Part shown: piece by piece, positions 30,534 through 53,175 of the stretch | Numbering within the stretch: position 1 is the first letter of the stretch | Layout: every line of letters begins with the position of its first letter | Source of the DNA: a virus | Strand: one strand, 5' to 3' | Virus record (IMG/VR): IMGVR_UViG_3300009528_000013 | Coordinates: 53,771 to 117,770 of that record | Length of the DNA stretch: 64,000 bases | Notes under the pieces: model-generated | Database searches by the model: none | Told to the model about the DNA's origin: nothing | What the model saw: the letters and a program-made list of their open reading frames with translations, nothing else | Position numbers and translations under genes: made by a program

Positions 30534-30539
30534 AGGAAA

Positions 30540-30649: not shown

Positions 30650-30681
30650 ATCGTTCACTGGCAGCATCAGGAGATGATATA

Positions 30682-31677: not shown

Positions 31678-31697
31678 ATTGTTGAAGAGGTACCCGC

Positions 31698-31904
31698 ATG
31701 TCGAAAGATCTGGGAGTAAGTGATCGAGCGAAGTCGATATTAGATATTCAAAAGAAAGTCTTGCGGGACTTGAATCGTTTAAGTAAACTGGTCGAAGTAT
31801 TAAGCGAAGAGGAGCTTCAAGAAGTCGAAACTGAAATGCAGGAATTTCTTCGAGAGGCGCAAGTAAGACTCTGGTCACTGCAAGGAAAGCTCTGGGGTAT
31901 ATAA
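31698..31904 (+). CDS. Small coiled-coil hypothetical protein
   Basis: GAGG SD; fills the operon gap; heptad-like pattern. Confidence 0.6.
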   Translation: MSKDLGVSDRAKSILDIQKKVLRDLNRLSKLVEVLSEEELQEVETEMQEFLREAQVRLWSLQGKLWGI

Positions 31905-31910
31905 TTTTAA

Positions 31911-32414: not shown

Positions 32415-32415
32415 A

Positions 32416-33045
32416 ATGGTTCAGCGAATACTGGCGCTGAGTCCACATACCGACGATTGCGAATTCGGTTGTGGTGGTAGTCTGGCTCGATTTCTCGCTG
32501 AAGATAAAGAAGTCTTCTATGTGGCTTTCTCATCTGCCGAGAAATCTGTTCCACCCGAGTTGCCAAAAGGGATTCTCCGAGAGGAAGTTAAAAAGGCAAC
32601 CGCTGCGCTTGGGATTACAAGAGAGAATCTGATTCTTTTCGATTACGAAGTCCGGGATTTCCCTGCTCATCGTCAAAGTATTCTCGAAGATATGATCGAA
32701 CTGAGAGACGTAATCGAACCGGATTTGGTCTTTCTGCCCTCGGCAGATGATACACATCAGGATCATCAGGTTATTGCAGCCGAAGGATTCCGCGCCTTCA
32801 AGAAATCAACTCTTCTTGGATACGAAATTCCCTGGAACAACTTATCCTTCAGGACAGAATGTTTCATCTTTCTGGAGGAGCAATTCATCGAGTTGAAGAT
32901 CCGAGCGTTGAAATGCTACTTCTCACAGTTGGGAAGGGATTACATCAATGAAGATTTTATCCGGAGTCTCGTTCGCGCACGAGGTGGTCAGATCGGGACT
33001 CAATACGCGGAGGCCTTCAATGCAATTCACTGGATTATCCGATAG
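32416..33045 (+). CDS. PIG-L/LmbE-family deacetylase
   Basis: SPHTDDCEFGCGG and HQDH metal-binding motifs. Confidence 0.9.
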   Translation: MVQRILALSPHTDDCEFGCGGSLARFLAEDKEVFYVAFSSAEKSVPPELPKGILREEVKKATAALGITRENLILFDYEVRDFPAHRQSILEDMIELRDVIEPDLVFLPSADDTHQDHQVIAAEGFRAFKKSTLLGYEIPWNNLSFRTECFIFLEEQFIELKIRALKCYFSQLGRDYINEDFIRSLVRARGGQIGTQYAEAFNAIHWIIR

Positions 33046-33679
33046 AAATTTGAAGTACTATACAGACCGGTTCAGGAAACTTGGTGATTCTCCAGAGACT
33101 TTCTGGAATAGCCAGGAGTCGCAAGAGGTAAGATTCCGAGCGCTGACTCGGATCGGAGATCTCGATACTAGATCGATTTTGGACGTTGGATGTGGAACGG
33201 GAGATTTTCTCAAATTTCTGATCGAAGAAGAGTATCAGATCGCTCGGTACTTGGGTTGCGATCTCGTTGAAGCGGCGATTCAAATTGCCCGAAAGAAACA
33301 CCCATGCCATAGCTTTTTGATATTCGACGTGCGCGGGCTGAATTTCGATGACCAATTTGATTTCGTCTTTGGATCGGGATTGTTTGCCTTAGATGAAAAA
33401 GACTGGCATGCTAGGGTGATTGAGATTGTGACAAAGATGTACGCCCTCTGTCGGATTGGGGTCGGGGTAAATTTTCTGAGCAAGTTCGGGCTGGGCCGGG
33501 ACCTCGATTCCTTTTATTCGGATCCAGGCGAGATATTCACACTTCTTACAAAAGAGATTTCTCCGCGAGGGGCCTTTTTAGATCACACCTACAAAGAAAA
33601 TGACTTCACGATCTTTCTTTATCGGCCGGATTTCACCAAGTATCCCCAAGCTCTTGAAACCAATCGAAGAAGGTCCTGA
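33020..33679 (+). CDS. Class I SAM-dependent methyltransferase
   Basis: GGAGG SD and ATG at 33020; WNSQESQEVRF, ILDVGCGTGD, YLGCDL, FDFVFGSG. Confidence 0.85.
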   Translation: MQFTGLSDRNLKYYTDRFRKLGDSPETFWNSQESQEVRFRALTRIGDLDTRSILDVGCGTGDFLKFLIEEEYQIARYLGCDLVEAAIQIARKKHPCHSFLIFDVRGLNFDDQFDFVFGSGLFALDEKDWHARVIEIVTKMYALCRIGVGVNFLSKFGLGRDLDSFYSDPGEIFTLLTKEISPRGAFLDHTYKENDFTIFLYRPDFTKYPQALETNRRRS

Positions 33680-33691
33680 GAGGAGGTACTG

Positions 33692-34411
33692 ATGAGTTGC
33701 ACCGTCGCCATACACCAGCCCAACTTTGCTCCCTGGCTCGGCTATTTTTACAAGATGGCACACTGCGATATCTTCGTCTTTCTGGACGATGTTCCATTTT
33801 CAAAGGGTAGCTTCACCAATCGTTGCAGCATCTGGACGCCGAGGGGACCCCAATGGCTCACCGTTCCCATTCGGACGAAGGGGCGCTCCGGGCAGAAGAT
33901 TCAGAGTGTCGAGATAGTGAATACTCCGTGGCGACCGAAAATGGTGCGGACGCTTCAGCAGAATTATGGCAAGGCGGAGTACTTTGAGCGTTGGTTTCCG
34001 GTCATCGAGTGCGTACTACGAAGGCCTTACGAAAAGCTCTGTGATCTGAACATAGAGTTGATTCAGGTTCTTGCGAGAGTGTTCGGAATCGGATCTGAGT
34101 TCATCCTTGCTTCCGATTTGAAAGTTCAAGCGACGAAAGAGAACAGGATCATTGAAATCTTGAGAGCTGTCGGAGGCAGTGAATATCTCTCGGGTAACGG
34201 AGCGAGGAGTTATCAAATCGCTGAGAATTTCGAGGATTCCGGATTTCGCCTGACGTATTCGAGCTTTCAACAATTCGAGTACCCTCAACTCGGAAATGAG
34301 TTCATCCCCGGGTTGTCCATTCTTGATCTATTTTTTAATTGTGGTACAGACAGCATCCGGTATCTCAAAAGAGGGACAAATGAAGCTCACAGTTCAGATG
34401 GTGGTGATTAA
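33692..34411 (+). CDS. wbqC: WbqC-like family protein
   Basis: AIHQPNFAPWLGYFYK...FVFLDDV...WLTVP...YLSG...YPQ...FIPGLSILDLFFN signature. Confidence 0.9.
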   Translation: MSCTVAIHQPNFAPWLGYFYKMAHCDIFVFLDDVPFSKGSFTNRCSIWTPRGPQWLTVPIRTKGRSGQKIQSVEIVNTPWRPKMVRTLQQNYGKAEYFERWFPVIECVLRRPYEKLCDLNIELIQVLARVFGIGSEFILASDLKVQATKENRIIEILRAVGGSEYLSGNGARSYQIAENFEDSGFRLTYSSFQQFEYPQLGNEFIPGLSILDLFFNCGTDSIRYLKRGTNEAHSSDGGD

Positions 34412-35351
34412 CGAAGAGGATTACGTTTACTTCGCGCTGAAGTCGATCTATGATGTGGTCGAAGAGATCGTCATCGTGGAGGGCGCCGCCCGAAATCGAT
34501 ATGGAAGAGAGGCAATCGAGCAAGGGTTTTTAACCGAAGAAGGTCTCTCAACCGACGGTACACAGGCGGAGATTCAACGCATGCTCGATGAAGACGCAGA
34601 TCATAAGATCAAGTACATCCGGTACGGTTGGCAGCAATCGGTAAATGACTTGCGAAGACATTGCCATCAGAATGTCAGTTCGAATACAGATTATTGTTTA
34701 ATCTTGGATTCGGACGCGGTGTATCGACCAAGAGAGATCCAATGTCTCCGGAATCTGGTAATCGGATATCCTTCAATCTGGATGATCGCGGCGAAAGAGT
34801 TGATGTTTTTCCTCGATTTGAATCATATCCTCACAGTCGGAGAAGATTATCTTCAGATGTGTAACTATATCGACTCCGGGCTTTTTTGGAAATATCTCCC
34901 CGACATTGAGATTCTTGGACAACGACCTTATCGACTTGGCCAGAAAATGGAATTGGGTCTTCGGCGTACTCGATTCCAAGAATTAAAAACGCTTGACAAG
35001 AAAGGCGAAAAACTATATCTTTTCGAGCCGGCCGGTCTCTTTGATATTCTACACTTCGGATGGGTGCATACTCCGGAGAAAATGGAACGACATATTCTGC
35101 GATGGGCGCATGCGACTCGAAACCTGGTTGCACGAGGCGGTGGCGACGAAAGAATGAAGCGATGGTGTGCACCGATCCTTGAATCGAACGACGGAGAAAT
35201 CATGGAGTACTATCAAACGTATCATAAAATCTGGACTGGAATTTACGATGAGTCGGTCGAAGAACATCTCGAAAAATTTACTGGGACTTATCCTGTGGTT
35301 ATGTTGGAGCATCCGTACTATGGAAAGAGTGCTGAGGAATTGGGATGGTAA
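34380..35351 (+). CDS. GT-A-fold glycosyltransferase, paralogue 4 of 4
   Basis: INEEDYVYFALKSIYDVVEEIVIVEG; ILDSDA; HFGWVH. Confidence 0.8.
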   Translation: MKLTVQMVVINEEDYVYFALKSIYDVVEEIVIVEGAARNRYGREAIEQGFLTEEGLSTDGTQAEIQRMLDEDADHKIKYIRYGWQQSVNDLRRHCHQNVSSNTDYCLILDSDAVYRPREIQCLRNLVIGYPSIWMIAAKELMFFLDLNHILTVGEDYLQMCNYIDSGLFWKYLPDIEILGQRPYRLGQKMELGLRRTRFQELKTLDKKGEKLYLFEPAGLFDILHFGWVHTPEKMERHILRWAHATRNLVARGGGDERMKRWCAPILESNDGEIMEYYQTYHKIWTGIYDESVEEHLEKFTGTYPVVMLEHPYYGKSAEELGW

Positions 35352-35983
35352 CGCTTGCCGATCTGGGACCGAGAGCGAAAGAGCATCGTCCGCGCTGGAC
35401 GAGAGATGAAATTGCTTTAGATTACGGAATCTGGGAAGATGATCGCGTACTGGATATTGGATGCGGTCCGGGTGCTCCTCGGGTTCAGCTTACTGAATCG
35501 GCATTCCCCCGGGCGGATGTACTGGTCGATATGAATCCTGATCTGATTCCGGTATATCAAGGTCGGAAGTTTTTGCTGTCCGGAGTTGAGGCGCTGCCCT
35601 TCAGGAGCGAAAGCTTTGATTTTATCTGGTGTTCTCATATCCTTGAACATATTCTCGATCCAAAAGCGGCCTGCGAAGAATTGATGCGAATCGGTGCACG
35701 TGGCCGGATCAAGACGCCATCGCCTTTCAAAGAGATGCTTCATCCTCTACCATACCACTACTGGTTGGTTTCTTTTTATACGAATACTTTGGTTTTTGAA
35801 AAGAAGCCGACTTTCCTTTCTTCTGCATTATGGAACGAAGTAATCGATAGTTCTGCCGTGAAGGCCTGGAAGGATTATGTTCTATTCGCAAATGCAAAAA
35901 AAAGCCGTGTTAATCTTCCTCACCGATTCCGGGAGACTGTTTTCGATTGGGTAGGTGAATTCCGAGTAGAAGTATATCAATGA
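35345..35983 (+). CDS. Class I SAM-dependent methyltransferase
   Basis: VLDIGCG, VEALPFRSESFDFIWCSHILEH. Confidence 0.85.
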   Translation: MVTLADLGPRAKEHRPRWTRDEIALDYGIWEDDRVLDIGCGPGAPRVQLTESAFPRADVLVDMNPDLIPVYQGRKFLLSGVEALPFRSESFDFIWCSHILEHILDPKAACEELMRIGARGRIKTPSPFKEMLHPLPYHYWLVSFYTNTLVFEKKPTFLSSALWNEVIDSSAVKAWKDYVLFANAKKSRVNLPHRFRETVFDWVGEFRVEVYQ

Positions 35984-35996
35984 AAGAAGGATTCCG

Positions 35997-37130
35997 ATGG
36001 AGCATAAACTGAAGGTATTATTCGATGCTGGCGGGTTGTGGCAGTTTGTTCCAAAGAGATTTAAGGCAATCATGTCGCAACGGTTTAGCTGTAATTTTCT
36101 TGACCGTGAGCATCCACGAGATTATGTCCAAAGGAGCTTGGCGAAATGGGCGGATGTAATTTTTGTGGATTGGGGATTGGCGTGGGCGCAGTTTTATCTG
36201 GAGAATTTTCCAGAGAAGCGGATTATTGTACGAACGCATCGCGGCGATGTCTGGCATGAGAATTCACCGTTCTACTATTGGGAGAATGCCTCCGCAGTTC
36301 TGTTCATGAGTAATCATTACAGGAATCTTTTCCTTGAGAATTGTGTTGCAAATGTTCTGGATGATATGCAGGAACGATGTATAACTGTACCCAGATTGGT
36401 AGATGAACAGCACTGGCGGTTTTTGAATGATTTCATAAATCAGCGTGACTATGGTCGGAGATTAGGTATGTTGGGCCGGTGTATTCCACGGAAACGAGTT
36501 GTCGAATTTGCTAAATTGCTCGATGGGCCATTAGCAATGGAATATCCAATATCTAATCGTTGGACGGAAGCGAATTGTCTTTCACCGAATTTTTCGTTGA
36601 GCTTGCTTGGTTTTGAGGAAAATGATCGAACACACTTTCCAGATTACATTGCTGAACTTGAGTCTGTAGTTCGATCTTCGGATCGTATCCAGGTTCTTGA
36701 CCATGTGAGTGGAGATGCGGTTATAAAGTGGTTTGCTGATATTGATTTTGTAATCAGTTTCTCTGAGGATGAAAGTTGGCACGCTGCAATTACGGAAGGA
36801 ATGCTCTGCGGGTGCGTGCCGGTGATATTTAATTGGCCAGGTGCGGATGAGATGCACCCAGTGGAGTGCATTTTTCAAGACGATGTGGAGTTGGTGAATT
36901 ATTTGAAAAAGCAATCCCCGCCATTGAGGTATGTGGATGGGTATGGGTGGTTGCCCAAAGTCCAAAAAAAGCGAATTAGTAGATCTGCGTGGGCGCGTAC
37001 ATGGTGCTTGGAACGTTACAGCCTGGAAGACGTAACAGATCTATATGCCGATATTATCAAGGGAGATGAAGTTCCATTAGATCTGAATCCGCAGGATATT
37101 ATCCCATTTCGGAAAAGTCAGCAACGATGA
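35997..37130 (+). CDS. GT-B (GT4-like) glycosyltransferase
   Basis: ADVIFVDW, LGMLGRCIPRK, DFVISFSEDESWHAAITEGMLCGCVPVI (ExxxxxxxE motif). Confidence 0.8.
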   Translation: MEHKLKVLFDAGGLWQFVPKRFKAIMSQRFSCNFLDREHPRDYVQRSLAKWADVIFVDWGLAWAQFYLENFPEKRIIVRTHRGDVWHENSPFYYWENASAVLFMSNHYRNLFLENCVANVLDDMQERCITVPRLVDEQHWRFLNDFINQRDYGRRLGMLGRCIPRKRVVEFAKLLDGPLAMEYPISNRWTEANCLSPNFSLSLLGFEENDRTHFPDYIAELESVVRSSDRIQVLDHVSGDAVIKWFADIDFVISFSEDESWHAAITEGMLCGCVPVIFNWPGADEMHPVECIFQDDVELVNYLKKQSPPLRYVDGYGWLPKVQKKRISRSAWARTWCLERYSLEDVTDLYADIIKGDEVPLDLNPQDIIPFRKSQQR

Positions 37131-37630
37131 AAAACTATATTGCAAAAAAATGCCTTGCTTTTTCAGACGTTTTACGTTATTTTCTATTCTTGGAATCTGG
37201 GAAAACGATCCGAGATGATCGAGTATTAGAGCAACTTGTTCGTAGTCAATGCTTCCACAATAGACAGGTGAATCCCTTTGGAGTCTGGACGCTTGGCTAC
37301 AAGACCGATAGGAGAAATGAGCAGATTGTCGAATGGGTCGAGATCAGTCTGTCTACGAAGGAACTCTGCGTGACCGCCGTGGATCCGATTTGGAATCCGC
37401 TCTTGAGAAAGTGGAATGGGAATCTTCGAGATTGTAGCAAACGGATTACTCATGGGACCGGTTCAATTCACCCAGAGAAACAAAAGATTACGGTTGTGCA
37501 GAAATTTTCTGAGAAGTTGAACGGAGAATTCGAAGTCATTGATGGCTTTCACCGGTCTATGCTGATGCTCAGCGAAGGAACCGAGAAGATAGATGCAATT
37601 GTTGGTTTAACCGAAGCGACTTATTTTTGA
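37127..37630 (+). CDS. Hypothetical protein with ParB/Srx-like motif
   Basis: C-terminal FEVIDGFHRS...IDAIV. Confidence 0.55.
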   Translation: MKNYIAKKCLAFSDVLRYFLFLESGKTIRDDRVLEQLVRSQCFHNRQVNPFGVWTLGYKTDRRNEQIVEWVEISLSTKELCVTAVDPIWNPLLRKWNGNLRDCSKRITHGTGSIHPEKQKITVVQKFSEKLNGEFEVIDGFHRSMLMLSEGTEKIDAIVGLTEATYF

Positions 37631-37641
37631 GGAGGAGAAAA

Positions 37642-38448
37642 ATGCCTGAGCTGATCGAAGTCCATTGTCCCTTACACGACCATCGAACGAAGTCCGAATT
37701 TCTGTTCGAATGCCCGCCGAACAACTGGGCTCAGGAACAGCCATTAAAAGTCGAGCGGTGCGAAGAATGCGGGCTGCTTTTTTTCAACCCGAACATCTCC
37801 GCGGCGGATCGAAAGGCGTATCATAAAAAAGAGTACTACATCGCCGATCCCAAAGGGTGCATCGGGTACCCGAATTACATCGAGGAAGATCACCTCGGAG
37901 CGAAGATTTACTTCGGGAAGCTTACTCTCTCTTGGTTCAATAGACGTTGGAAAGACAAAACCCGGAAGCCCTGTTCGTTGATCGATTTCGGGTGCGCCAC
38001 CGGGCACATGAGCAAACCGTATTTCGATCGGGGATGGAGAGTCGTTGGAATCGAGTTCTCTAAGTGGGCAGTGGATTGGGGCAGAGAGCATTTGGGCCTG
38101 GAACTCCGGTGTCAGGACATGGACGAACTCGTTCTGGACAATGAAGAGATTTTCGATTGTGTGCTGCTCTGGGATAGTCTGGAACATTCGCAGCATCCTC
38201 GGAAATTGCTTCGGAAGATCTTTACGCACAGTTCGGAAAATATGCTCATGATTATCCAAATGCCGGATACTGCGAAGTACGGAGATGATCCTCTGCATCC
38301 CTTCTGGTCGTTGTACCAGCATTGTTTCCACTACGATCATTCCACGCTGAATCTTTTGCTGAAGTTGGAGGGGTTTAAGACATCCCGGAAACTCCCATCG
38401 TCGCAGATGGATGAGATGTTGGTCATTGCCGAAAAGATAAAGGAGTAG
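37642..38448 (+). CDS. Class I SAM-dependent methyltransferase with N-terminal Zn-binding region
   Basis: CPLH...CEECGLLFFNP; LIDFGCATG; VGIEFS; WDSLEH. Confidence 0.85.
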   Translation: MPELIEVHCPLHDHRTKSEFLFECPPNNWAQEQPLKVERCEECGLLFFNPNISAADRKAYHKKEYYIADPKGCIGYPNYIEEDHLGAKIYFGKLTLSWFNRRWKDKTRKPCSLIDFGCATGHMSKPYFDRGWRVVGIEFSKWAVDWGREHLGLELRCQDMDELVLDNEEIFDCVLLWDSLEHSQHPRKLLRKIFTHSSENMLMIIQMPDTAKYGDDPLHPFWSLYQHCFHYDHSTLNLLLKLEGFKTSRKLPSSQMDEMLVIAEKIKE

Positions 38449-38451
38449 GCT

Positions 38452-39600
38452 ATGATTCAAAAATGGACCGTTGATCAGTTTGGAGTTGCAGTCGCTGGCG
38501 TTTTGACGAAATTCAAGGATCATATCTTCGACCTTGATCCAGATTTGGTCCAGCTTCCATTGCACCTGAATAGTCCCTCTCCCGAAGATTGTGCAGCAGT
38601 CATCGATTCGGACACGAGGCTGATCGGTAAGTTCATTCTGCCGGTGGGCGTGAACAACGTTCCCCACGCGGCCTTCAAGGAAGTGTTGGAGAAATATCGG
38701 GGCCTCATTCGGATTTGGGATTTCGGAGGAGAGCCAGAGACTCGTCCCGATCAGCCAGGGTGCCGGTTCTCGGGGGACGAGGAGGAATTCGTTCGTCAGG
38801 TTCGGACGTTCTACGAGATGGGCAAAAAGATCGATCCTGAAAACGTAATCGGAGGCTGCGGGTGGATTACTCCGACGTTCAATGGCAGCTTTGGGAATGA
38901 GGATCGAAGTCAGTTTTTCGAGAACTGTTTTGCACTTGGGATTGGACAGGTGCTAGACTTTATCAGCCTGAATTTCTATACTTACGGATACGGAGGAACA
39001 AAGAATATCCTTCAGGGGATTTCGAAAGTCAATGAGATTCTCGCCTGGTACCGCGTTGAGAAACCTGTCGTCGTCGCAGAATGCGGAGTTCCCTGTACCG
39101 GAGATCCAAAATTCCTTCACATTATCCAGACCCCAGAGCGTCAGGCGATTTCTCTCGTCAAACAACACGTGCTTTTCAATTCGGTCGGGATCGATTACGC
39201 GATCTGGTTTGCCCTGAAACATCTGGGGTGGGGTCTGTTAGACACGAGAGGGAAGCCGAGGCCGTCTTATTATGCGATGCGAACGATCAAGGATTTCTTG
39301 AAGGGAGCGATCTTCAAAACGCAGATGAAAGCGTATCCCAGTCGAACAGTCGAGGAACGTTGGTGCACCGACAAGATCAACTGGTTCGTTTTCGAAAGAG
39401 ATGACAAGGAGATCCACGTAATCTGGACTACGGAAAGACTGGAGATGGATCGAGAGTTTCCATTTAAGGACGTTTCTGTTTTCGGTGTAATTGGGCAACC
39501 GATTGATGTATCGGGAGGATCGATTCGATTGACCGACTCGCCTCTCTATTTTATTGCGGACCCGGGCGAGCTTCATTCGTATAATTTCCTGCTTCTCTGA
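38452..39600 (+). CDS. Clan GH-A-like TIM-barrel glycoside hydrolase
   Basis: WDFGGEPE (acid/base position), DFISLNFY, KPVVVAECG (nucleophile position), WGLL...KPRPSYYAM. Confidence 0.7.
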   Translation: MIQKWTVDQFGVAVAGVLTKFKDHIFDLDPDLVQLPLHLNSPSPEDCAAVIDSDTRLIGKFILPVGVNNVPHAAFKEVLEKYRGLIRIWDFGGEPETRPDQPGCRFSGDEEEFVRQVRTFYEMGKKIDPENVIGGCGWITPTFNGSFGNEDRSQFFENCFALGIGQVLDFISLNFYTYGYGGTKNILQGISKVNEILAWYRVEKPVVVAECGVPCTGDPKFLHIIQTPERQAISLVKQHVLFNSVGIDYAIWFALKHLGWGLLDTRGKPRPSYYAMRTIKDFLKGAIFKTQMKAYPSRTVEERWCTDKINWFVFERDDKEIHVIWTTERLEMDREFPFKDVSVFGVIGQPIDVSGGSIRLTDSPLYFIADPGELHSYNFLLL

Positions 39601-39616
39601 TCGGGGGTGAACGAAT

Positions 39617-40009
39617 ATGGCAGCGATAGTTGAGGCTACAATCGACGTAGGAGGTGGTCCTTACGGAGTAGGTTGTGATGAGACTGCTGAAAAAACTTTC
39701 GTTGCGAATTATGGTGATGATACAATCTCCGTCATTCATACACCATCGAATACCGTGAGCGCAACTATCGGGGTAGGGGCAGGCCCTTACAGAGTCGCTT
39801 GCGATGAGGCTGCAGGGAAAACATTCATAACGAATTGGAACGATGATAGTGTCTCAGTAATTCACACGGGATCCGATACGGTAAGCGCAACGATTGGAGT
39901 GGGTGTTCAGCCTGCTGGTGTTGCCTGTGATGAGACTGTTGGAAAGACCTTTGTGGTGAATTATGGACCGGATACAGTCTCCGTAATCACCGGGTACAAC
40001 GGGTGTTAA
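39617..40009 (+). CDS. Three-repeat YVTN-type beta-propeller protein
   Basis: Three TIxVGxxPxxVxCDExxxKTFxxN repeats; ends GYNGC. Confidence 0.8.
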   Translation: MAAIVEATIDVGGGPYGVGCDETAEKTFVANYGDDTISVIHTPSNTVSATIGVGAGPYRVACDEAAGKTFITNWNDDSVSVIHTGSDTVSATIGVGVQPAGVACDETVGKTFVVNYGPDTVSVITGYNGC

Positions 40010-40024
40010 ACTAAGAAAGGACTT

Positions 40025-41977
40025 TTGAAATTGAACTCGAAAGATCTGACTCAGGAGCCGATTGTCGATATTATTATCCCGTACTGGAATCAGAATGGCC
40101 TGACAAAGCAATGTATTCGCAGCATCTTCTCTTACGTCCGGGTACCCTATAAACTGACCTTGATCGATAATGGCAGCGATGTCTTCGATCAAGACCTCTT
40201 TGAGATGGAAAGGTCCGGAGTACGGTTCATCCACAACAAGGAGAATCTCGGATTTGTCAAGGCTGTAAATCAAGGCTTGAAAGAATCGGTTGCTCCATTC
40301 GCTTGTTTTATGAACAACGATATGGTCGCAACCGAATTTTGTTTCGAGCGGATGTTAGCTCATCTCGAAGCGCATCCTGAAGTCGGCGCAGTGGGACCCT
40401 GTTCGAACTTCGTGATGTGGAAACAGGCGGCTCAGTTAGCCGGTGATACTGGAAAACTGACTCCGGAAGAGATCAATGATGCCGCCCAGGAGAATTACGA
40501 AAAGTGTAAAGGGCAACTTCTCGATACCAAACTGCTCATTGGGATTTGTGTTCTGATGCGGCGGGAGGTTCTGGAGGAGGTTGGCCTTTTGGATGAAGCC
40601 TTCGGAATCGGTTGCAGCGATGACTTTGACTATTCCATTCGAATACGAAAAGCTGGCTGGAGACTCGGAGTCGCCCGAGACGTTTTCATATATCATTACG
40701 GACATCAAACCTTCGAGGAATTGAAGAAAGATCCGGAATTTGATTTCGATAAGCAGTTGACCGGTAATCAATCGATATTGAGAGAAAAGTGGGGAGATGA
40801 AGAGGTCGATGATCTTTTTGAGGAAGACAACAGCTTGGGTTTCTGCCTGATTGTGAAGGATGAAGAGAAGACCTTGCCAAGATGTTTAGAAAATTTGAAA
40901 GAAGTCGCGGATGAAATTGTAATCGTGGATACCGGCTCGACCGACCGAACGAAGGAAGTTGCAAGGGAATACACCGATAAGATCTTCGACTACGAGTGGG
41001 GTGACGATTTTTCCGCTGCGAGGAACTTTGCATTTTCTAAAGCCGAATCGGGATGGATTTGCTGGCTTGATGCCGACGATTACGTCCAAAAAGAGCAAGC
41101 TGATGCGATTAAGAATCTGACGCTAAATTCCAATGGAACAACCGCCTTTGCTTTCCCGACGCATTGCCTCGGAGACACTGGCGAATTACTTCTGATCAAC
41201 ACTCGAATTCGTCTGGTCAAAAACCGGAGAAGCTATCGCTTTCGCAGTCGTCTGCATGAGACCCTTGATTTAAGGGGAGATGATTTTCAGAAAGTCAATC
41301 TTCCTATAATTCATGGCGGACCGGAGATTGCAAAGTTCAAGGATAAAAGTGGACAGCACGATTTCAATATCCGGATTCTCTTGAGGGAAATCGAAGAGAA
41401 ACCGGAGGATCTCTTTGTGAATTTCAACCTCGCCCGGGCTTACAAGGGAGCGGGTCGAATTCAAGATGCAGAGACCAGGTACAAATTGGTTATGACATTG
41501 GATAAGTTTAAGAGCAACTTCAGATACCTGGCGGCTCTGGGCTTAGCCGAGTTGTATCTGGATGAGAAGGAGTACGATGAGGCGATTGATTATGGGTATG
41601 AGGCGATCAAATGCACGAATCTGCGAGCTGAGCCGTTTGCGGTTATTGGATTGGCGTACTTCTACAAAAAAGTCTTTCACAAAGCGGCAGCAGCTTTTGA
41701 AAATGCGCTTCAGTTGAAGCCGCAATTCGATACTTTCATTCCTTTGGATCTGGGTGTGTACAACTATAAGTCGTGGGTGAATCTCGGTAGCTGTCATTTC
41801 AATCTTGGACAACTCGATAAGGCAGAAGAATGCTACGAGAAGGCCTTGAATTACAATCCGCTGTTGGAGGACGCGAGAAGAAATCTGGCTATCGTCCGCG
41901 ATGCAAAACAAAATCAGAATCTGAAGCTTATACGGTCAGATTCTGAGGAGGTGAGGCAACATGGCAATCGTGGTTGA
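40025..41977 (+). CDS. Double GT2 glycosyltransferase with TPR repeats
   Basis: IIIPYWN...IDNGS...NNDM...SDDFDY; CLIVKDEE...VDTGSTD...DFSAARN...LDADD...LHE; several TPR helical pairs. Confidence 0.9.
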   Translation: MKLNSKDLTQEPIVDIIIPYWNQNGLTKQCIRSIFSYVRVPYKLTLIDNGSDVFDQDLFEMERSGVRFIHNKENLGFVKAVNQGLKESVAPFACFMNNDMVATEFCFERMLAHLEAHPEVGAVGPCSNFVMWKQAAQLAGDTGKLTPEEINDAAQENYEKCKGQLLDTKLLIGICVLMRREVLEEVGLLDEAFGIGCSDDFDYSIRIRKAGWRLGVARDVFIYHYGHQTFEELKKDPEFDFDKQLTGNQSILREKWGDEEVDDLFEEDNSLGFCLIVKDEEKTLPRCLENLKEVADEIVIVDTGSTDRTKEVAREYTDKIFDYEWGDDFSAARNFAFSKAESGWICWLDADDYVQKEQADAIKNLTLNSNGTTAFAFPTHCLGDTGELLLINTRIRLVKNRRSYRFRSRLHETLDLRGDDFQKVNLPIIHGGPEIAKFKDKSGQHDFNIRILLREIEEKPEDLFVNFNLARAYKGAGRIQDAETRYKLVMTLDKFKSNFRYLAALGLAELYLDEKEYDEAIDYGYEAIKCTNLRAEPFAVIGLAYFYKKVFHKAAAAFENALQLKPQFDTFIPLDLGVYNYKSWVNLGSCHFNLGQLDKAEECYEKALNYNPLLEDARRNLAIVRDAKQNQNLKLIRSDSEEVRQHGNRG

Positions 41978-42863
41978 AGCGACAATAGGAGTTGGAACTT
42001 CTCCGCTCTTGCTCGCTTGTGACGAAATACTTGGAAAGGTATTTGTGGCAAATTCAGGTTCGGATAACATATCCGTTATCCATGCTACGTCTAACACTGT
42101 TTCAGCCACTATCGGAGTAGGGATTACGCCTACTGGAGTGGCGTGTGATGAAACGGCGGAAAAGACGTTTGTAACGAATCGATCAGGATCGACTACAGAT
42201 ACAGTATCGGTGATTCATACGCCATCGAACACTGTTTCAGCTACCGTAATTGTAGGAAAACATCCCGATGGCGTTGATTGCGACGAGAGTGCCGGGAAGA
42301 CGTATATTGCACTTCACAGTTGGGCCGCAGTCACCGTTATTCATACTCCCACGAATACGGTTTCTGCGACAATTCTTGTGGGAAGCAGCAACCCTGGAAT
42401 TGCGTGTGATGAGTCAGCAGGTAAAGTTTTTTCGGTTAGTCGTGATGCGACAGTATCTGTGATTCACACCGCATCAGATACTGTTTCCGCTACAATAAAT
42501 GTGGGAGTCCAGTCTCACAGAGTTGCTGTTGACGAAAACGCCGGGAAGGCCTTTGTAACAAATCGTGATTCGAATTCGGTCTCTGTGATTCACATCGCAT
42601 CGAATACTGTTTCAGCCACTATTGGAGTTGGAGTTGAGCCATACGGCGTAGCTTGTGATGAGACTGCCGGAAAAGTATTCGTAGCTAATTCTGGTTCGGA
42701 CACGGTATCCATTATCCATACCGCGTCGAATACAGTTTCGGCGACTATTGATGTCGGGGATGTCCCTTACGGAGTTATTTGCGATGAGAGTTTAGAGAAA
42801 GCTTTTGTGACAAATAATGCTGACGGAACCGTTTCTGTTATCAGCGGATACAATGGATGCTGA
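41961..42863 (+). CDS. Seven-bladed YVTN-type beta-propeller protein
   Basis: Seven repeats of the same CDE-containing subtype; ends GYNGC. Confidence 0.85.
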   Translation: MAIVVEATIGVGTSPLLLACDEILGKVFVANSGSDNISVIHATSNTVSATIGVGITPTGVACDETAEKTFVTNRSGSTTDTVSVIHTPSNTVSATVIVGKHPDGVDCDESAGKTYIALHSWAAVTVIHTPTNTVSATILVGSSNPGIACDESAGKVFSVSRDATVSVIHTASDTVSATINVGVQSHRVAVDENAGKAFVTNRDSNSVSVIHIASNTVSATIGVGVEPYGVACDETAGKVFVANSGSDTVSIIHTASNTVSATIDVGDVPYGVICDESLEKAFVTNNADGTVSVISGYNGC

Positions 42864-42874
42864 AGGAGGATCTG

Positions 42875-44227
42875 ATGGAAGTTATTACCCGAGCTGCGCC
42901 GACTCTGAGTGGGAGTTTGCATTTGGGGACGCTCTACAACGCTCTTCTGAATTATGCCTTTGCCAAGCGAGAGGGAGGGTTATTTTATCTTAGATTGGAT
43001 GGACAGAAGGTGGGCGACCAGCGAAGAAAGATTGGCGATGACCTCATCCGGGATCTCGAAACTTTCGGATTATGTCCGGACAGGATCATTTGGCAGTGCG
43101 ATAGCAGAGGATGGTACCGACAGCAGATCGAGGAAATCGCAAGCGATCCGAGAGTATATTTCTGCGATTGCACGGCCGGCGATATTTTTGAGCGCACCCG
43201 ATTTGACCAATCGAACTTGAAGGCTCTGATCCGAGAAGAAAAATATCCCGGTCCTTGCGAGATTCAGCGGATAAAAGTGTTCGACGCCAACCGAGCGGAG
43301 ACCCGTCGAGACGTGGCGTTGGGCCAAAAGGTACAAGCCAGCACCGAAGCAAAGGGATATGAAGCTCAAAACGTCACAGACGGTTCGGAAAGATCCTGGA
43401 AGGCGTATGAAGTCGGTGCGCTGTGCGACCCTCCCCGTGATACTCACTTAACTATCGATCTTGGTCAAGAAGTTTGGGTCGGAGCGGTAGAAGTGCTGTG
43501 GAATTTTTACCCGGTGAAATCTTACAGGCTTCGCATTCCAGATGGACTGTGTATCGGGGGACTTGTCTCTATAACCCGAGAAAATAACTTCTGCGTCTCA
43601 TCGAGAACGAATGGCGCTTACGAGGGCGCCGTCGCCGACCAGCTCTCGTTTGCTCCGGTCAAGACTCGTTTTATTACGCTTGAGGTAAATGAACTGTGCC
43701 ACGAGATCAAGCGCGAGTACTACTACGACGATCATTGCAGAGATCTACAAAAGAAAGGTAATCTGCGTAACGCTCGAACCGTTCTTAGAGTTCGGTCCGA
43801 AGCTCCGCTTGACGTTGCGATTTATTTCAACAGAATTCCGGATCTTTGTTTCACTTCGGCATTAGACGATCAGAAGGCCGGGATCACACACTCGATCAGA
43901 GGATCGGACATCGCACCCTTCACAATGTTGGAAAGAGAAGCCGGAAAGCTTATCGGATACGTGGCGAACAATCTCTTTCATGGGATGGTGGTCGATCGCA
44001 GACAAGTCAAATTGAGCAAATTCATCGGAAGCCCACCTGCAATTAAAAAACTGGAAAGCGGATCGACTCCAAATGAAGTACTTACGAATCTTGCTCGGAG
44101 CGCAGGAATCATTTCGTGGAAATCCGATCTGCTTGGTCTGCCCGATTTAGTCGAGGCAATCGACTTTGAGAGGGCATTTTCCGGACTCGGCCTGAAGCCC
44201 AACTTTGAGTACCGCGCCGACTGGTAA
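42875..44227 (+). CDS. GluRS/GluQ-like class I aminoacyl-tRNA synthetase paralogue with inserted F5/8 type C (discoidin-like) domain
   Basis: GGAGG SD; RAAPTLSGSLHLGT (HIGH), YFCDC...YYYDDHCR Zn knuckle, DDQKAGITHSIRGSD, KLSK (KMSKS); insert VQAS...AQNVTDG...W...LTIDLG; no anticodon-binding domain. Confidence 0.85.
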   Translation: MEVITRAAPTLSGSLHLGTLYNALLNYAFAKREGGLFYLRLDGQKVGDQRRKIGDDLIRDLETFGLCPDRIIWQCDSRGWYRQQIEEIASDPRVYFCDCTAGDIFERTRFDQSNLKALIREEKYPGPCEIQRIKVFDANRAETRRDVALGQKVQASTEAKGYEAQNVTDGSERSWKAYEVGALCDPPRDTHLTIDLGQEVWVGAVEVLWNFYPVKSYRLRIPDGLCIGGLVSITRENNFCVSSRTNGAYEGAVADQLSFAPVKTRFITLEVNELCHEIKREYYYDDHCRDLQKKGNLRNARTVLRVRSEAPLDVAIYFNRIPDLCFTSALDDQKAGITHSIRGSDIAPFTMLEREAGKLIGYVANNLFHGMVVDRRQVKLSKFIGSPPAIKKLESGSTPNEVLTNLARSAGIISWKSDLLGLPDLVEAIDFERAFSGLGLKPNFEYRADW

Positions 44228-44243
44228 AGACCCTGAAAACGAT

Positions 44244-44567
44244 ATGCTTTACGGACTCAAAGAAAAACCAGGATGCGTCTTTTGTGAGATCGGAGCTAAA
44301 AGAACCCCGGCTACGATATATTTTGAAACCGAATTTGCAATGGCGATCAAGGACATCAAGTCCGATGATATCCTTTTGATTCCGAAGAAACATATCGAAT
44401 GCACTCCGAAAAATCTGGCGATGGCTGCCAGTCTGCTTTTGCAACTCCCGGTAATGATGAAACTGGACAAATTTGAAGTAGTGACTCATATCGGGTGGCA
44501 CGTGACTATCAATCATCTGCATATTCGCATTCGAAGGAAAGATAACGTAAAAAAATTTTGGGAATAA
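44244..44567 (+). CDS. HIT-family nucleotide hydrolase-like protein (third His replaced)
   Basis: CVFCEI...IYFE...AIKDI...LLIPKKHI; NHLHIR in place of HxHxH. Confidence 0.7.
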   Translation: MLYGLKEKPGCVFCEIGAKRTPATIYFETEFAMAIKDIKSDDILLIPKKHIECTPKNLAMAASLLLQLPVMMKLDKFEVVTHIGWHVTINHLHIRIRRKDNVKKFWE

Positions 44568-44596
44568 AAAAAAGCCCGGGCGGCGATTGCCCGAGC
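44566..44596 (-). terminator. Rho-independent terminator at the operon convergence point
   Basis: Minus strand GCTCGGGC-AATCGCC-GCCCGGGC followed by 8 T. Confidence 0.85.
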
Positions 44597-44694
44597 TAAT
44601 TTTATGGTCCTTCTGTGGACTCAAGAGCGATGATTTGTCCACCAGCCGAGGAAGAAGCATATCAATCCCACAGGCACAATCCGTCATGCATTTA

Positions 44695-44844
44695 TCACGA
44701 TTCTCCTTCCTTTGTTCGAGTCTTTCCATCCGCTCTCCATCTGGCCAGCCGGCCTACAACCAGGCCAAATAAAAAACAGGCGATCCCATTGCCTACGATC
44801 ACGAGCCACGAGAAATTACTGATCACTGACTTCTCCTCGATCAT
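44695..44844 (-). CDS. Small single-TM protein (holin-like candidate)
   Basis: ATGA overlap with the amidase stop; hydrophobic FSWLVIVGNGIACFLFGLVVG followed by a basic tail. Confidence 0.45.
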   Translation of the reverse strand: MIEEKSVISNFSWLVIVGNGIACFLFGLVVGRLARWRADGKTRTKEGES

Positions 44845-45443
44845 TGCAGCGCTTCTACAAAGTTCCAGATTCCCAGAGCGTGTCCCCATGCGATTCTCGG
44901 AACAAGTGACCCTTCTTTCAGGGCGATCGCCACGGGATCGTGAGTGATAAACGCCGCTTCCGTCAGAATAGCGGCAGGCTTCGTATTTCGAAGAAATGCC
45001 AGCGTATGATTCGAACGAATGCGTCGATTGCGAAAACCAAGAGTCTTTACGAGTGCTACCTGAAGATGTTGCGCGGCCAGATTCCCAATCGCAGATCCGG
45101 GATAATACCAGACCTCGGTGCCATTGATCGCTGCATCGATGGCCGGCGTCTCTACACCGACCGATGGCGAAGGCGCATTCAAATGAATCTCGATGGCGAG
45201 TTCGATGAACTCCCGCTTATGTTCCGCATTGATGATCTGAATTTTCTCCTCCAGTGAACAGGAGGAAATCGTAACCACCTCAACCGAACTGTACTCGAGC
45301 ATTGACCAAAGCGTGAATCCGATCTGCTTGACCGCCTCGAATTCAGTCAATCCGGTACTCTTGTTTATCGCACCCGGGTCGTAAAGAAGCTCACCGAATT
45401 CGTTGTTTCCGTACCCATGACCAATAGACATTGCAATCCTCAT
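44841..45443 (-). CDS. N-acetylmuramoyl-L-alanine amidase (Amidase_3), putative endolysin
   Basis: SIGHG, E, EIHLNA, GTEVWY, PAAILTEAAFIT. Confidence 0.9.
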   Translation of the reverse strand: MRIAMSIGHGYGNNEFGELLYDPGAINKSTGLTEFEAVKQIGFTLWSMLEYSSVEVVTISSCSLEEKIQIINAEHKREFIELAIEIHLNAPSPSVGVETPAIDAAINGTEVWYYPGSAIGNLAAQHLQVALVKTLGFRNRRIRSNHTLAFLRNTKPAAILTEAAFITHDPVAIALKEGSLVPRIAWGHALGIWNFVEALQ

Positions 45444-45748
45444 TTTTTCCTCGCTTTCTCTACCAGCTTGTTCCACTCCGCTAACTTCCTATTTGCGATT
45501 GCCTTCTTTGACTTGGTGGCGTCGAAGTCTTCCTTCCCCCGCGCGCGTTCAAATCTCTTCCAACAATTCAGACAGGTATTTTCATCCTTCAGATAAACAT
45601 TTTCCTCCATTTCCTGAACGTCCCAATCCGGAGATTCAGTAGTCGGCCAAGGAGTACACCCCGCTCTCTTGGTTTTTTCGTTGACAATATGAATCTTTGT
45701 CTTATCCCACTTACTCTTCCCGGATGTTCTTTTTACGAGGACTTTCAT
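45440..45748 (-). CDS. Hypothetical protein
   Basis: ATGA-coupled to both neighbours; HIV...AGC...CLNC pattern. Confidence 0.6.
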   Translation of the reverse strand: MKVLVKRTSGKSKWDKTKIHIVNEKTKRAGCTPWPTTESPDWDVQEMEENVYLKDENTCLNCWKRFERARGKEDFDATKSKKAIANRKLAEWNKLVEKARKK

Positions 45749-46611
45749 TCGGAAGGCTCCTGTTCTTTTCGGTATTTGTAATCCTTCCAGGCATCAGTGA
45801 TTGTCTTGTACGTCCTGTAATAATGCAGATTGATGAAGCGTCTAAATGATCTGGTATATTCAGTTCTTGAGTAGAGCATTGGATAAGGAGTCAGACCGTG
45901 ATCGTTGATGACCTGACACCGGTGAAGATCTTCCTCCATAGTCGTGTCGAAACCGATCAACACGTACACCAGATTGTTGACGGATCGCAGGTGATATTCT
46001 TTGAGTAACTTCAATCCCCTGATGATCTTTGGTTCATCTGTTATCCGATCCCAAGCAAAATGAATTCCGGTATAGAAATTCGTTTGCTTGAGCGCTTCCG
46101 CTTGCTCGTGATCTACGAGTCTGAGATCGTACCCATTTTCATCGATAACAGTCAGACCGGCGTCCCAGATTTCTTCAAAGGTCTCCCTCCATTGGGGATC
46201 GCTGAAAGTGTTGTTGTTCAGAAGACATATCTTTCGAAATCTGGGTTCGTGGAATTCCCAAATCGAATGATGGACCCGGGGATTACGCTGTTTCGGTACG
46301 ACGCAGAACTTACATCTGCGCGGGCAATACGACCAAGTATAGCCCAGAGAATAATCCATATTCGGGAACAGATCGTAATCGGGTCTTTCCATCTCACAGG
46401 GTGATCGATTATACGGACTGATGGCCGGCCCCCCTTCCAGATCACAGTTGTATTTGAGAGATGAAGTAAAAAGCCAGGATCCATAGGAAACATCCGTTGG
46501 CCGGAGAGGTTGATTCAGAGCTACCTCATCGCCCTGCTTTTTATGGTAAGTCGAAATCTTCATCAACGCCAGATTATGACGCGGCGCGTCTGTTAGGAGA
46601 TTGACTTTCAT
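45745..46611 (-). CDS. Radical SAM protein (phage type)
   Basis: CPRRCKFC (CxxxCxxC); NLALMKIS; YVLIGFD. Confidence 0.88.
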   Translation of the reverse strand: MKVNLLTDAPRHNLALMKISTYHKKQGDEVALNQPLRPTDVSYGSWLFTSSLKYNCDLEGGPAISPYNRSPCEMERPDYDLFPNMDYSLGYTWSYCPRRCKFCVVPKQRNPRVHHSIWEFHEPRFRKICLLNNNTFSDPQWRETFEEIWDAGLTVIDENGYDLRLVDHEQAEALKQTNFYTGIHFAWDRITDEPKIIRGLKLLKEYHLRSVNNLVYVLIGFDTTMEEDLHRCQVINDHGLTPYPMLYSRTEYTRSFRRFINLHYYRTYKTITDAWKDYKYRKEQEPSE

Positions 46612-46835
46612 TTGGGACTCACCTTCTGACAACTTTCTTCCTTCTCAAACACCGTCACCGGTTTGATCGCGATAACACCCGATGAGAAGAGATAGGGCTT
46701 ATCGAAATCCTCTTGAAGATGCAAATCTTGCGCCAGAATATGAAAATGTTCCGAGAGAAGTCTAAACGCATCATCCAAAGCTCTTGCCTGAAAACAGACA
46801 TCGGCTTTCATTCTAAACTTGATCAACATACGCAT
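46608..46835 (-). CDS. Hypothetical protein
   Basis: GAAGGAG SD; coupled to the radical SAM gene. Confidence 0.5.
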   Translation of the reverse strand: MRMLIKFRMKADVCFQARALDDAFRLLSEHFHILAQDLHLQEDFDKPYLFSSGVIAIKPVTVFEKEESCQKVSPK

Positions 46836-52242: not shown

Positions 52243-53175
52243 TCATTTATCCGATTCCAGATAGGGCCACTCTTTTCCGACTGCCAACCGGCTTTTTTCC
52301 TCTTGCTCTTGCTCTTGCTCTTGCTCTTTCTCCTTCCTCAATCGTTCTCGTGCATCCTCAAAGAACGGTTCGGCAAACTTGGAAGTCCACGTCCGCTCAT
52401 CGAAGCTCCGCTCTGTCAAGGACTTCAGGAAGCCCTCGAAGTCTCCGAAGTAAGAGCCGTAAATGTGATAGCTGTCTGCGATCCAGACGAGTTGCCCGGG
52501 TCTGATCACTCGTTCAAGCCCTGCGCTCACACGCTCTGCTATGACACGCTGAAGATCGGTGAAGGCGAATAGATTCATAAAAGCCGCCTTGTACGCATCA
52601 TTGCTGCGGATATGTACGTTACAAATAAGCTCATCGCCCACGATCCTGAACCAGATCCTCTGGAGACACGGGGCGAACTCATCCTGAGGGTCGCACCAGA
52701 CTTTCCATGTGACAACTTGAGCCCGTCTGGTATATGGAGCTTCTATAAGCTTCTCAACCACCAGGTCAAGTTGATTGATCGTCCGTGGACGAAGGAGAAC
52801 GCCGCACTCGCTCTCTTTGTGCAGTGGGAGGTCATACTTCGCCAAGCGCCCGTGGTAAGTATGAGACCAGCCACCTTCAGTACGACTGACCCAGTGGTCG
52901 TGTACGCCATAGACCACCTCCTGCCGGTAGGTTTCCAGATCTTCCAATCCCCCTGGGAATGCTCGATGGATTCGAGGTTCCTTCCGGGGCTCCCTCACCA
53001 CCATAATCATCGTGCAGTCCCGGCTCGGTGGATCTCCTTCCTTATCGTATTCTGTCCGAATGGCCGCACCTTCCTCCCAACATGCGATCACCGACCGCTC
53101 CCACACCTCCGGGAGTGTCGACCCGACAATTTTCAATACAGGAATGCCGCTATCGATTGGAGTAGATTTCATCAA
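52243..53175 (-). CDS. thyA: Thymidylate synthase (ThyA family, archaeal-like subtype)
   Basis: TYHGRL, TRRAQ, PCLQ (catalytic Cys), HIRSNDAYKAAFMN, SYHIY. Confidence 0.85.
   Translation of the reverse strand: MMKSTPIDSGIPVLKIVGSTLPEVWERSVIACWEEGAAIRTEYDKEGDPPSRDCTMIMVVREPRKEPRIHRAFPGGLEDLETYRQEVVYGVHDHWVSRTEGGWSHTYHGRLAKYDLPLHKESECGVLLRPRTINQLDLVVEKLIEAPYTRRAQVVTWKVWCDPQDEFAPCLQRIWFRIVGDELICNVHIRSNDAYKAAFMNLFAFTDLQRVIAERVSAGLERVIRPGQLVWIADSYHIYGSYFGDFEGFLKSLTERSFDERTWTSKFAEPFFEDARERLRKEKEQEQEQEQEEKSRLAVGKEWPYLESDK

Follow-up and report, generated by a model that had tools for sequence, protein, structure and literature searches.

What use would a tailed phage have for the catalytic domain of an aminoacyl-tRNA synthetase (aaRS) that carries a sugar-binding-type module inside its Zn-binding subdomain and is encoded among glycosyltransferases? 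The question is raised by the gene for a protein of 450 aa (P0001) in a stretch of viral DNA of 64,000 nt, hereafter the window, which covers positions 53,771 to 117,770 of the IMG/VR virus record IMGVR_UViG_3300009528_000013. We refer to P0001 as the ligase, after the function proposed for it below. An earlier inspection of the letters and open reading frames (ORFs) of the window, the sequence-only reading, had described the product as a GluQ-like aaRS paralogue repurposed for the aminoacylation of a virion glycan. Judged from sequence, the P0001 family is a small, monophyletic, virus-restricted variant of aaRS paralogues that is new to the literature searched. For its function we propose, by analogy, an ATP-dependent amino acid:sugar ligase of the MshB/MshC type, and we consider the chances of this proposal being right or wrong to be about equal.

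Results

A GluRS/GluQRS-type catalytic domain with an altered amino acid pocket

The ORF is real, and all motifs quoted in the sequence-only reading were found at verified coordinates (Table 1). That reading had preferred the ATG at 42875 to the ATG at 42857 that opens the longest ORF; this start is borne out because a perfect AGGAGG, placed directly after the stop codon of the preceding gene, sits 5 nt before 42875. Pfam tRNA-synt_1c (PF00749) matched P0001 with 67.7 bits (gathering threshold, 23.4; E, 1.1e-18), and this generic label is all that annotation currently gives the family. GluQRS models ranked at the top of the NCBIfam matches (93 bits; E, 1.8e-26), with model cut-offs of 250 to 453. 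P0001 failed both the GluQRS equivalog TIGR03838 (93.1 bits; cut-off, 276.7) and the gltX model TIGR00464 (62.3 bits; cut-off, 289.95). The best sequence match in the PDB was H. pylori GluRS1 (E, 2.7e-32).

An AlphaFold2 (AF2) model of full-length P0001, made with 14 homologues in the input, had a predicted local distance difference test score (pLDDT) of 86 and a predicted template modeling score (pTM) of 0.85. In an exhaustive structural comparison, the Rossmann-type catalytic part of this model matched GluRS cores with Z scores of 24 to 25 and a root mean square deviation (rmsd) of 2.4 to 2.7 over 240 to 274 residues, and Foldseek placed the fold with solved GluRS at an E value of 1e-14. E. 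coli GluQRS (4a91) matched with a Z score of 24.1, with 258 of its 290 residues aligned at an rmsd of 2.6. The scores for MshC (3c8z; Z, 16.3) and for the PyrN domain (9l8v; Z, 15.8) were at the level of the general class I core. Sequence and structure comparison alike found no anticodon-binding domain in P0001, in agreement with the sequence-only reading; the chain continues for ∼68 residues past KLSK, and the match extends over the whole of 4a91.

We compared residue conservation in 29 members of the ligase family with that in 51 short GluQRS-like and 62 long GluRS relatives. The KMSKS residues K379, S381, and K382 and the HIGH residues H16 and G18 were present in all 29 members, as were G343 and D345, while R6 and R342 were each kept in 28, D332 in 27, and D331 in 26. 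The HIGH (HLGT) and KMSKS (KLSK) motifs and the DD..GITHSIRGSD stretch are thus intact, as had been noted from the sequence. Since the adenylation motifs are invariant across the family, the ligase looks like an active adenylating enzyme.

The pocket for the amino acid is different. In T. thermophilus GluRS, a Tyr and two arginines hold the gamma-carboxylate of glutamate, and a Glu or Asp residue holds the alpha-amine. Position 324 is Leu in all 29 ligase-family members and Tyr in 49 of the 51 short and 52 of the 62 long relatives. Similarly, position 43 is Gly in 27 of 29 members, where Asp is found in 47 of 51 short and 60 of 62 long relatives, and D42 is present in every member at a position where the relatives carry a mixture of Glu and Asp. 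The replacements of RIED by RLDG and of PTY by PDL, read earlier from this one protein, therefore hold family-wide, and the conserved Glu-binding pocket of GluQRS (the Tyr of P-T-Y and R-I-E-D) is not kept. Among other positions, S328 is invariant in the family, E353 stands where relatives have Gln, and I346 is Leu or Ile, matching the GluQRS-like relatives. Because the pocket has changed (Tyr to Leu, Asp to Gly, and Glu to Asp) but both arginines are kept, the substrate is probably Glu-like or acidic as before, though perhaps not Glu itself; even when remodeled, the pocket would probably accommodate a side chain of the acidic or amide type.

A CBM32-type module in the Zn-binding subdomain

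The sequence-only reading had seen an F5/8C/discoidin-like domain in the ligase, and the structural comparisons support a CBM32/discoidin fold for a module of ∼155 aa. In the full-length AF2 model, on which this assignment rests, the core of the insert matched the chitosan (GlcN)-binding module 4zxe with a Z score of 14.4 (rmsd, 2.4; 113 of 132 residues), followed by 2v72 (the CBM32 of NanJ; Z, 13.6), 7blg (12.8), 1eut (12.3), and 4lks (12.2). Overall, these matches had an rmsd of 2.3 to 2.6 over 112 to 121 residues, which is most of each module, and 4zxe was tied with other CBM32s. Modeled alone, the insert had low confidence (pLDDT, 61.6), and Foldseek with that model still returned CBM32 and F5/8C folds. 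The relatives P0003 and P0011 have a precomputed match to PF00754, and W175 of the insert is nearly invariant. To our knowledge, an inserted lectin domain in an aaRS paralogue is unprecedented.

The domain does lie inside the Zn knuckle, as the sequence-only reading had placed it, but it does not take up everything between CDC and YDDHCR; instead it is flanked by two Yx3C motifs. The first of these belongs to an R120-x-E-K-Y-P element that is family-specific and nearly invariant, including in members without an insert. With C97xC99-x24-Y124x3C128, P0001 has the canonical spacing of the GluQRS Zn motif, defined as CxCx11-28Yx3C (PMC4381286). Jointly aligned, GluQRS-like and GluRS relatives have their Y...C at the position of Y124...C128. 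The second motif, Y284x3C288, is followed 17 residues on by R305, the conserved strand Arg, a spacing that also looks canonical next to the ∼16 of E. coli GluRS. Because the insert is bracketed by both motifs, the Zn ligands are ambiguous.

In GluRS, the Zn subdomain (pZBD) places the acceptor arm of the tRNA (PMC4381286). In the model of P0001, it is this subdomain that the insert occupies.

A virus-restricted family outside GluQRS

A word-indexed search recovered 13 full-length relatives of 38 to 87% identity, and an exhaustive HMMER search gave 22 clusters at 50% identity with E values of <1e-30. We built a quick maximum-likelihood tree of 20 family members and 57 relatives, with the outgroup classes assigned by length only. 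The ligase family formed one clade (Shimodaira-Hasegawa-like approximate likelihood ratio test, 99; stem, 0.58) outside both the ∼300-aa GluQRS-like and the ∼470-aa GluRS clades. "GluQ-like" as a statement of membership, which was part of the sequence-only reading, thus did not hold up: P0001 reaches 93 bits where 277 are needed, and its family branches elsewhere. Median isoelectric points did not separate the groups (6.77 for the ligase family and 6.76 for GluQRS-like proteins).

The 18 loci recovered were all viral or metagenomic. We found no family member in 185,579 prokaryote species genomes (one genome scanned per species) and no carrier of the ligase among the cultured phages of a phage collection, where there was also no close DNA match and where protein matches were N-terminal only, at 31 to 35% identity. 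A protein atlas search with the ligase gave no match, the sole PHROGs match was a family of unknown function covering the ligase N terminus, and a literature search returned no description of the family.

Two relatives, P0031 (295 aa) and P0033 (290 aa), have both motif regions and no sandwich. They nest among insert-bearing members in the tree, which suggests that they lost the lectin domain secondarily.

Linkage of the ligase to glycan genes

Gene context was read from 18 related loci (19 with the window genome), many of which are short. The sequence-only reading had named beforehand an absence of linkage to glycosyltransferase (GT) clusters as telling against it; the ligase was found among GT or sugar-tailoring genes in six of the seven lineages that have flanking DNA (window/L006-8, L001/L009, L002/L003, L004, L005/L012/L013, and L011). 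In L001/L009, the neighbors are a GT9, a methyltransferase, a B12-radical-SAM-GT2 fusion, a pyruvyl transferase, a GT2, and a DUF2334/CE4-like deacetylase; L002/L003 have two GT9s, an NAD-dependent epimerase/dehydratase, and a GT2. A GFO/IDH/MocA oxidoreductase, a DegT aminotransferase, a B12-radical-SAM protein, and two GT2s are found in L005/L012/L013, and a GT2 is near the ligase in L011. L004 has a GH-A-like protein and a GT2-TPR protein, and Laminin_G_3 and Peptidase_S74 tail-fibre-type genes flank its ligase. We also observed that in L001 a single ORF joins the B12-binding radical SAM and GT2 parts, while in L012 the radical SAM protein is a separate gene.

The best-conserved neighbor was a GH-A-type protein, present in 10 of the 19 loci, including the window genome, and encoded immediately 5' of the ligase in L012, L013, and L018. 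It is 54 to 58% identical where the ligase is only 35 to 37% identical, and it may act in trimming, in transglycosylation, or as a depolymerase. This protein had no Pfam match, and its best PDB match had an E value of 0.038; its class was assigned from the GGEPE and AECG motifs and from its atlas neighbors.

Three unrelated enzymes predicted to expose sugar amines are found with the ligase in three lineages: PIG-L in the window, the DUF2334/CE4-like protein in L001, and DegT with GFO/IDH/MocA in L012 and L005. The analogy to MshC, drawn already from the sequence, is strengthened by these partners.

The phage genome and its glycan operon

The record, of 117,770 bp and ∼87% complete, belongs to a tailed phage, and the window is its right part. 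The phage encodes a tape-measure protein, a primase-helicase, SbcCD, and an Amidase_3 endolysin; because it carries these genes, the last of which implies peptidoglycan, the host is a bacterium. We found no tRNA genes, no TGT, and no QueC in the phage genome.

A plus-strand operon runs from the head and tail genes through the glycan cluster, and most of its genes overlap or are <20 nt apart. The cluster encodes ∼8 GTs (GT9, several GT2-like, GT1-like, and a GT2-GT2-TPR fusion), five S-adenosylmethionine (SAM) methyltransferases, PIG-L, WbqC, a GH-A-type protein, and two YVTN propeller proteins. No membrane-spanning segment was predicted in any glycan-cluster product, and all are predicted to be soluble. 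We know of no established function for the WbqC family, and a literature search gave nothing relevant.

The two YVTN proteins, the second of them directly upstream of the ligase, have three and seven repeats of ∼40 aa each, which are 55 to 65% identical to the repeat blocks of the 791-aa tail protein whose gene follows the tape-measure gene. Both terminate in the peptide GYNGC. Conceivably, they decorate the virion or accept the glycan.

Directly 3' of the ligase gene and 10 nt 5' of the terminator lies a HIT-like ORF, which matched Pfam DcpS_C with an E value of 1.4e-4 (22.7 bits against a threshold of 24) and has an alternative TTG start at 44205. This ORF was absent from all other ligase loci examined. 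HIT/HINT enzymes hydrolyze aminoacyl-adenylates, and a functional tie between the HIT-like ORF and the ligase is conceivable. A 206-aa ORF on the minus strand (44109-44729) was rejected as spurious; it overlaps the ligase end and the HIT-like ORF and runs through the terminator hairpin.

Beyond the terminator, the endolysin gene and the gene of a radical SAM protein (phrog_9298) open a convergent minus-strand operon. Further along the minus strand is a divergent gene of the thymidylate synthase (TS) family, which has a PHROG assignment as thymidylate synthase and a Pfam match of 46 bits covering only model positions 90 to 218. Inspected by eye, this ThyA homologue has the catalytic Cys and an Asn at what we take to be the position of N177 in E. 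coli ThyA. From its sequence, it could be an ordinary TS or a deoxyuridine monophosphate (dUMP) hydroxymethylase.

Table 1. Positions of the ligase, its motifs, and other features (window coordinates unless a related locus is named)
Feature	Position	Strand	Remark
Glycan cluster (∼17 kb)	27587..44567	+	Ligase is the penultimate gene
PIG-L family de-N-acetylase (MshB family)	32416..33045	+	Candidate source of acceptor amine
WbqC-family protein	33692..34411	+	E, 1.9e-73
GH-A clan (GH5/39/42-like) TIM-barrel protein	38452..39600	+	Conserved partner of ligase
Shine-Dalgarno AGGAGG	42864..42869	+	5 nt 5' of ATG at 42875
Ligase gene (P0001), 450 aa	42875..44227	+	GluRS/GluQRS-type catalytic domain only, with CBM32 insert
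HIGH motif HLGT	42920..42931	+	H16 and G18 invariant in 29 members
RLDG replacing canonical R-I-E-D	42992..43003	+	D42 invariant, G43 family-specific
C97-D-C99, first half of Zn motif	43163..43171	+	Invariant; motif definition, PMC4381286
R120-E-E-K-Y124-P-G-P-C128	43232..43258	+	R-x-E-K-Y-P element and first Yx3C; C128 in 21/29
Inserted module, residues 129-283 (∼155 aa)	43259..43723	+	Between two Yx3C motifs
CBM32/F5-8 type C beta-sandwich core, residues 142-278	43298..43708	+	From structural comparison
Y284-D-D-H-C288-R289	43724..43741	+	Second Yx3C-R; C288 in 29/29, Y284 in 28/29
PDLCFTSALDD	43838..43870	+	L324 replaces Glu-binding Tyr; S328 invariant
ITHSIRGSD	43883..43909	+	R342 in 28/29, G343 and D345 invariant, as in GluRS/GluQRS
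KMSKS-type KLSK	44009..44020	+	Invariant in family
HIT-like ORF, last operon gene	44244..44567	+	CVFCEI, LLIPKKH, NHLHI; weak support
Intrinsic-terminator-like hairpin, bidirectional	44573..44597		Plus and minus operons converge; GC-skew switch
YVTN protein, 3 repeats	39617..40009	+	
YVTN protein, 7 repeats	41961..42863	+	
Tail protein, 791 aa	17156..19531	+	
Amidase_3 endolysin	44841..45476	-	
Radical SAM protein (phrog_9298)	45745..46632	-	
Thymidylate-synthase-family gene	52243..53175	-	
GH-A homologue in L001	4927-6063		
GH-A homologue in L002	12971-14116		
GH-A homologue in L012	933-2117		
GH-A homologue in L018	213-1355		
B12-binding radical SAM and GT2 in one ORF, L001	7141-8970	+	

Discussion

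Proposed function of the ligase

We propose that the ligase is an adenylate-forming class I enzyme, specific to phages, that descends from the catalytic domain of GluRS/GluQRS. It would bind ATP via HLGT and KLSK and activate an amino acid as aminoacyl-AMP without tRNA, the remodeled pocket selecting a substrate that is probably still Glu-like or acidic, perhaps not Glu. The aminoacyl group would then be moved to a sugar held by the CBM32 domain in the Zn-binding subdomain. Most likely, the acceptor would be a free sugar amine, either in the glycan made by the phage or in its nucleotide-sugar precursor, that is exposed by PIG-L here and by the CE4-like deacetylase or DegT in relatives. A stable amide would result, paralleling the MshB/MshC steps in the synthesis of mycothiol; this linkage is favored because amine-exposing partners recur across lineages and because an ester would be labile outside the cell. 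The glycan would probably decorate virion proteins assembled in the cytoplasm, with the virion as target being something we infer only from the position of the gene in the operon.

The broader claim of the sequence-only reading, a synthetase repurposed for glycan aminoacylation, fits the invariant adenylation motifs, the CBM32 fold, the GT linkage, and the absence of tRNA and queuosine genes; its GluQ membership fell away. Several observations weigh against the function proposed here. We infer the amino acid, the acceptor, and the type of bond (ester or amide) alike. The Pfam match of the insert to F5_F8_type_C (PF00754, residues 159-278; E, 4.6e-4) stays at 20.7 bits, below the gathering threshold of 28.2, and discoidin folds also bind proteins and lipids. 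Insert-less members within the family imply that the lectin domain is not essential to the family chemistry, and the flanks of L014/L015 contain no glycan gene. Moreover, GluQRS acts on a diol borne on nucleic acid, so that ancestry favors a nucleic acid acceptor, and the divergent ThyA-family gene of the phage leaves room for a glycan on DNA.

Alternative explanations

The alternative that survives best, though we regard it as unlikely, builds on these last two points. Here the acceptor would be a sugar on a hypermodified DNA base: 5-hydroxymethyl-pyrimidine DNA would be glycosylated by the GTs, and the diol would be aminoacylated in the way that GluQRS treats queuosine. The TS-family gene (46 bits) would be in keeping with this, as would the cytoplasmic character of all glycan-cluster proteins and the nucleic acid-borne diol that was the target of the ancestor (PMC9437257). 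Phage GT-A and GT-B enzymes, some encoded near ThyS homologues and structural genes, do glycosylate DNA (bioRxiv 10.1101/2023.12.21.572611). However, the ThyA homologue is 8 kb away on the opposite strand, in the replication module, and no ThyA homologue was found within 10 kb of the ligase in the other loci. The Asn of the phage homologue, at the position that by eye we take to be N177, would fit dUMP specificity, and the protein may be an ordinary TS. We looked for a C5-methyltransferase in the phage genome and found none; a search of the phage for Tet/JBP gave no match, and the control for that search likewise gave no signal. Further, ∼8 GTs, five non-DNA methyltransferases, and YVTN paralogues of the tail protein far exceed what the mono- to trisaccharides reported on DNA would call for, the cluster is interleaved with these tail-protein paralogues, and a diol-linked aminoacyl ester would be labile.

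EpmA/PoxA is a LysRS paralogue that modifies a side chain of EF-P. By analogy, the ligase could aminoacylate a protein side chain, with a YVTN or tail protein as the target and the discoidin fold serving in protein recognition, which we think improbable. The YVTN genes, one of them immediately upstream of the ligase, share repeats with the tail protein, eukaryotic discoidin domains bind proteins, and the L004 ligase is flanked by tail-fibre-like genes. Yet the YVTN proteins co-occur with the ligase only in the lineage of the window, while it is sugar enzymes (GH-A, GT9, and GT2) that are conserved as partners from lineage to lineage, and in structure the insert comes closest to bacterial CBM32s that bind carbohydrate.

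It is very improbable, in our judgment, that the ligase modifies tRNA or other RNA like GluQRS or charges host tRNA, with the beta-sandwich as an RNA- or protein-binding module. The top NCBIfam rank of the GluQRS models (E, 1.8e-26), the superposition of the whole 290-residue GluQRS structure, the Leu/Ile identity of I346, and the GluQRS spacing of the Zn motif would all be expected under this explanation. Against it stand the score of 93 bits where 277 are required, the branching of the family outside the GluQRS-like clade, and the change of the Glu-binding Tyr to Leu in 29 of 29 members. The phage also lacks tRNA, TGT, and QueC, the gene is found consistently within late-operon glycan clusters, and the insert takes up the place at which an acceptor arm would dock.

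The least probable explanation is a small-molecule product (an aminoacyl-nucleotide, or an aminoacyl ester or amide of a free metabolite) with the HIT protein processing the adenylate, for although the HIT-like ORF is directly downstream and class I aaRS-like domains such as MshC and the C-terminal domain of PyrN do act on small molecules, that ORF falls short of its Pfam threshold and is missing from all other loci, and the remaining operon, with its GTs and methyltransferases, is typical of glycan assembly.

Comparison with known systems

Two precedents underlie the amino acid:sugar ligase that we propose: GluQRS needs no tRNA for the activation of its amino acid and uses an acceptor other than the tRNA 3' end, and mycothiol synthesis follows the MshB/MshC logic (PMC9437257). 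Like the ligase, GluQRS/YadB (1nzj and 4a91), the enzyme that glutamylates queuosine-34 of tRNA-Asp, is a GluRS paralogue consisting of the catalytic domain only, with ∼290 core residues and the HIGH, KMSKS, and CxC...Yx3C motifs. In contrast to GluQRS/YadB, the phage ligase has a 155-aa CBM32 in the Zn subdomain, Leu for Tyr, and RLDG for RIED; it is found only in viruses, forms a separate clade, and is encoded in a glycan operon without a Q pathway or tRNA. Bacterial GluRS (6b1p, 2cfo, and 8i9i) shares the catalytic fold (Z, 24 to 25) and has its Zn subdomain at the same place, whereas the ligase has no anticodon-binding domain, scores below the gltX cut-offs, and has an altered pocket and a lectin at the dock of the acceptor arm (PMC4381286).

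The closest known working analogy, as opposed to homology, is MshC (the Cys:GlcN-Ins ligase, 3c8z). MshC, also a class I aaRS paralogue, activates an amino acid as its adenylate and then joins it in amide linkage to a sugar amine exposed by MshB, a PIG-L-family enzyme. This is the chemistry proposed here, and a PIG-L gene is in the same operon as the phage ligase. The two differ in descent, since MshC is CysRS-derived and the phage ligase is GluRS-derived (Z, 16.3 with MshC versus 24 to 25 with GluRS). Moreover, MshC has no lectin insert and, as part of a cellular thiol pathway, acts on a small pseudo-disaccharide. The C-terminal domain of PyrN (9l8v), which is MetRS-like and belongs with the hydrazine synthetases, is likewise class I aaRS-like and was solved with a glutamyl-adenylate analogue. 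It acts on a non-tRNA acceptor, but it comes from the MetRS lineage, is fused to a cupin, and serves the formation of natural-product N-N bonds rather than glycan chemistry. As for the insert, the beta-sandwich of residues 142-278 resembles CBM32 modules such as 4zxe and 2v72 (Z, 12 to 14.4; weak PF00754 match). Known CBM32s, however, are appended to glycoside hydrolases or stand alone, whereas this one is inside a synthetase catalytic domain.

Implications for aaRS paralogues and phage glycans

Taken further, and with somewhat less than an even chance of being right, the ligase may be the founding member of a third GluRS/GluQRS branch that is restricted to viruses, in which a lectin replaced acceptor-arm recognition and gave rise to an amino acid:glycan ligase. 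The route of retargeting would be one in which the core was retained, the anticodon domain was lost, and a lectin was placed where the tRNA acceptor end docks. The aaRS paralogues that work outside translation (GluQRS, MshC, EpmA, and the hydrazine synthetases) are few, and each has brought new chemistry. If the proposal is true, P0001 would be the first case of a carbohydrate-binding module inserted into an aaRS paralogue and would provide the first known enzymatic means of attaching amino acids to a viral glycan, be it one carried by virion proteins or by glycosylated DNA bases. Should the activity hold, amino acid-decorated sugars could be made without ATP-grasp or carrier-protein systems, and the enzyme would offer a compact ATP-driven tool to aminoacylate sugars. 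For the phages that carry it, it would add a tailoring step to glycans, which influence immune recognition and host range.

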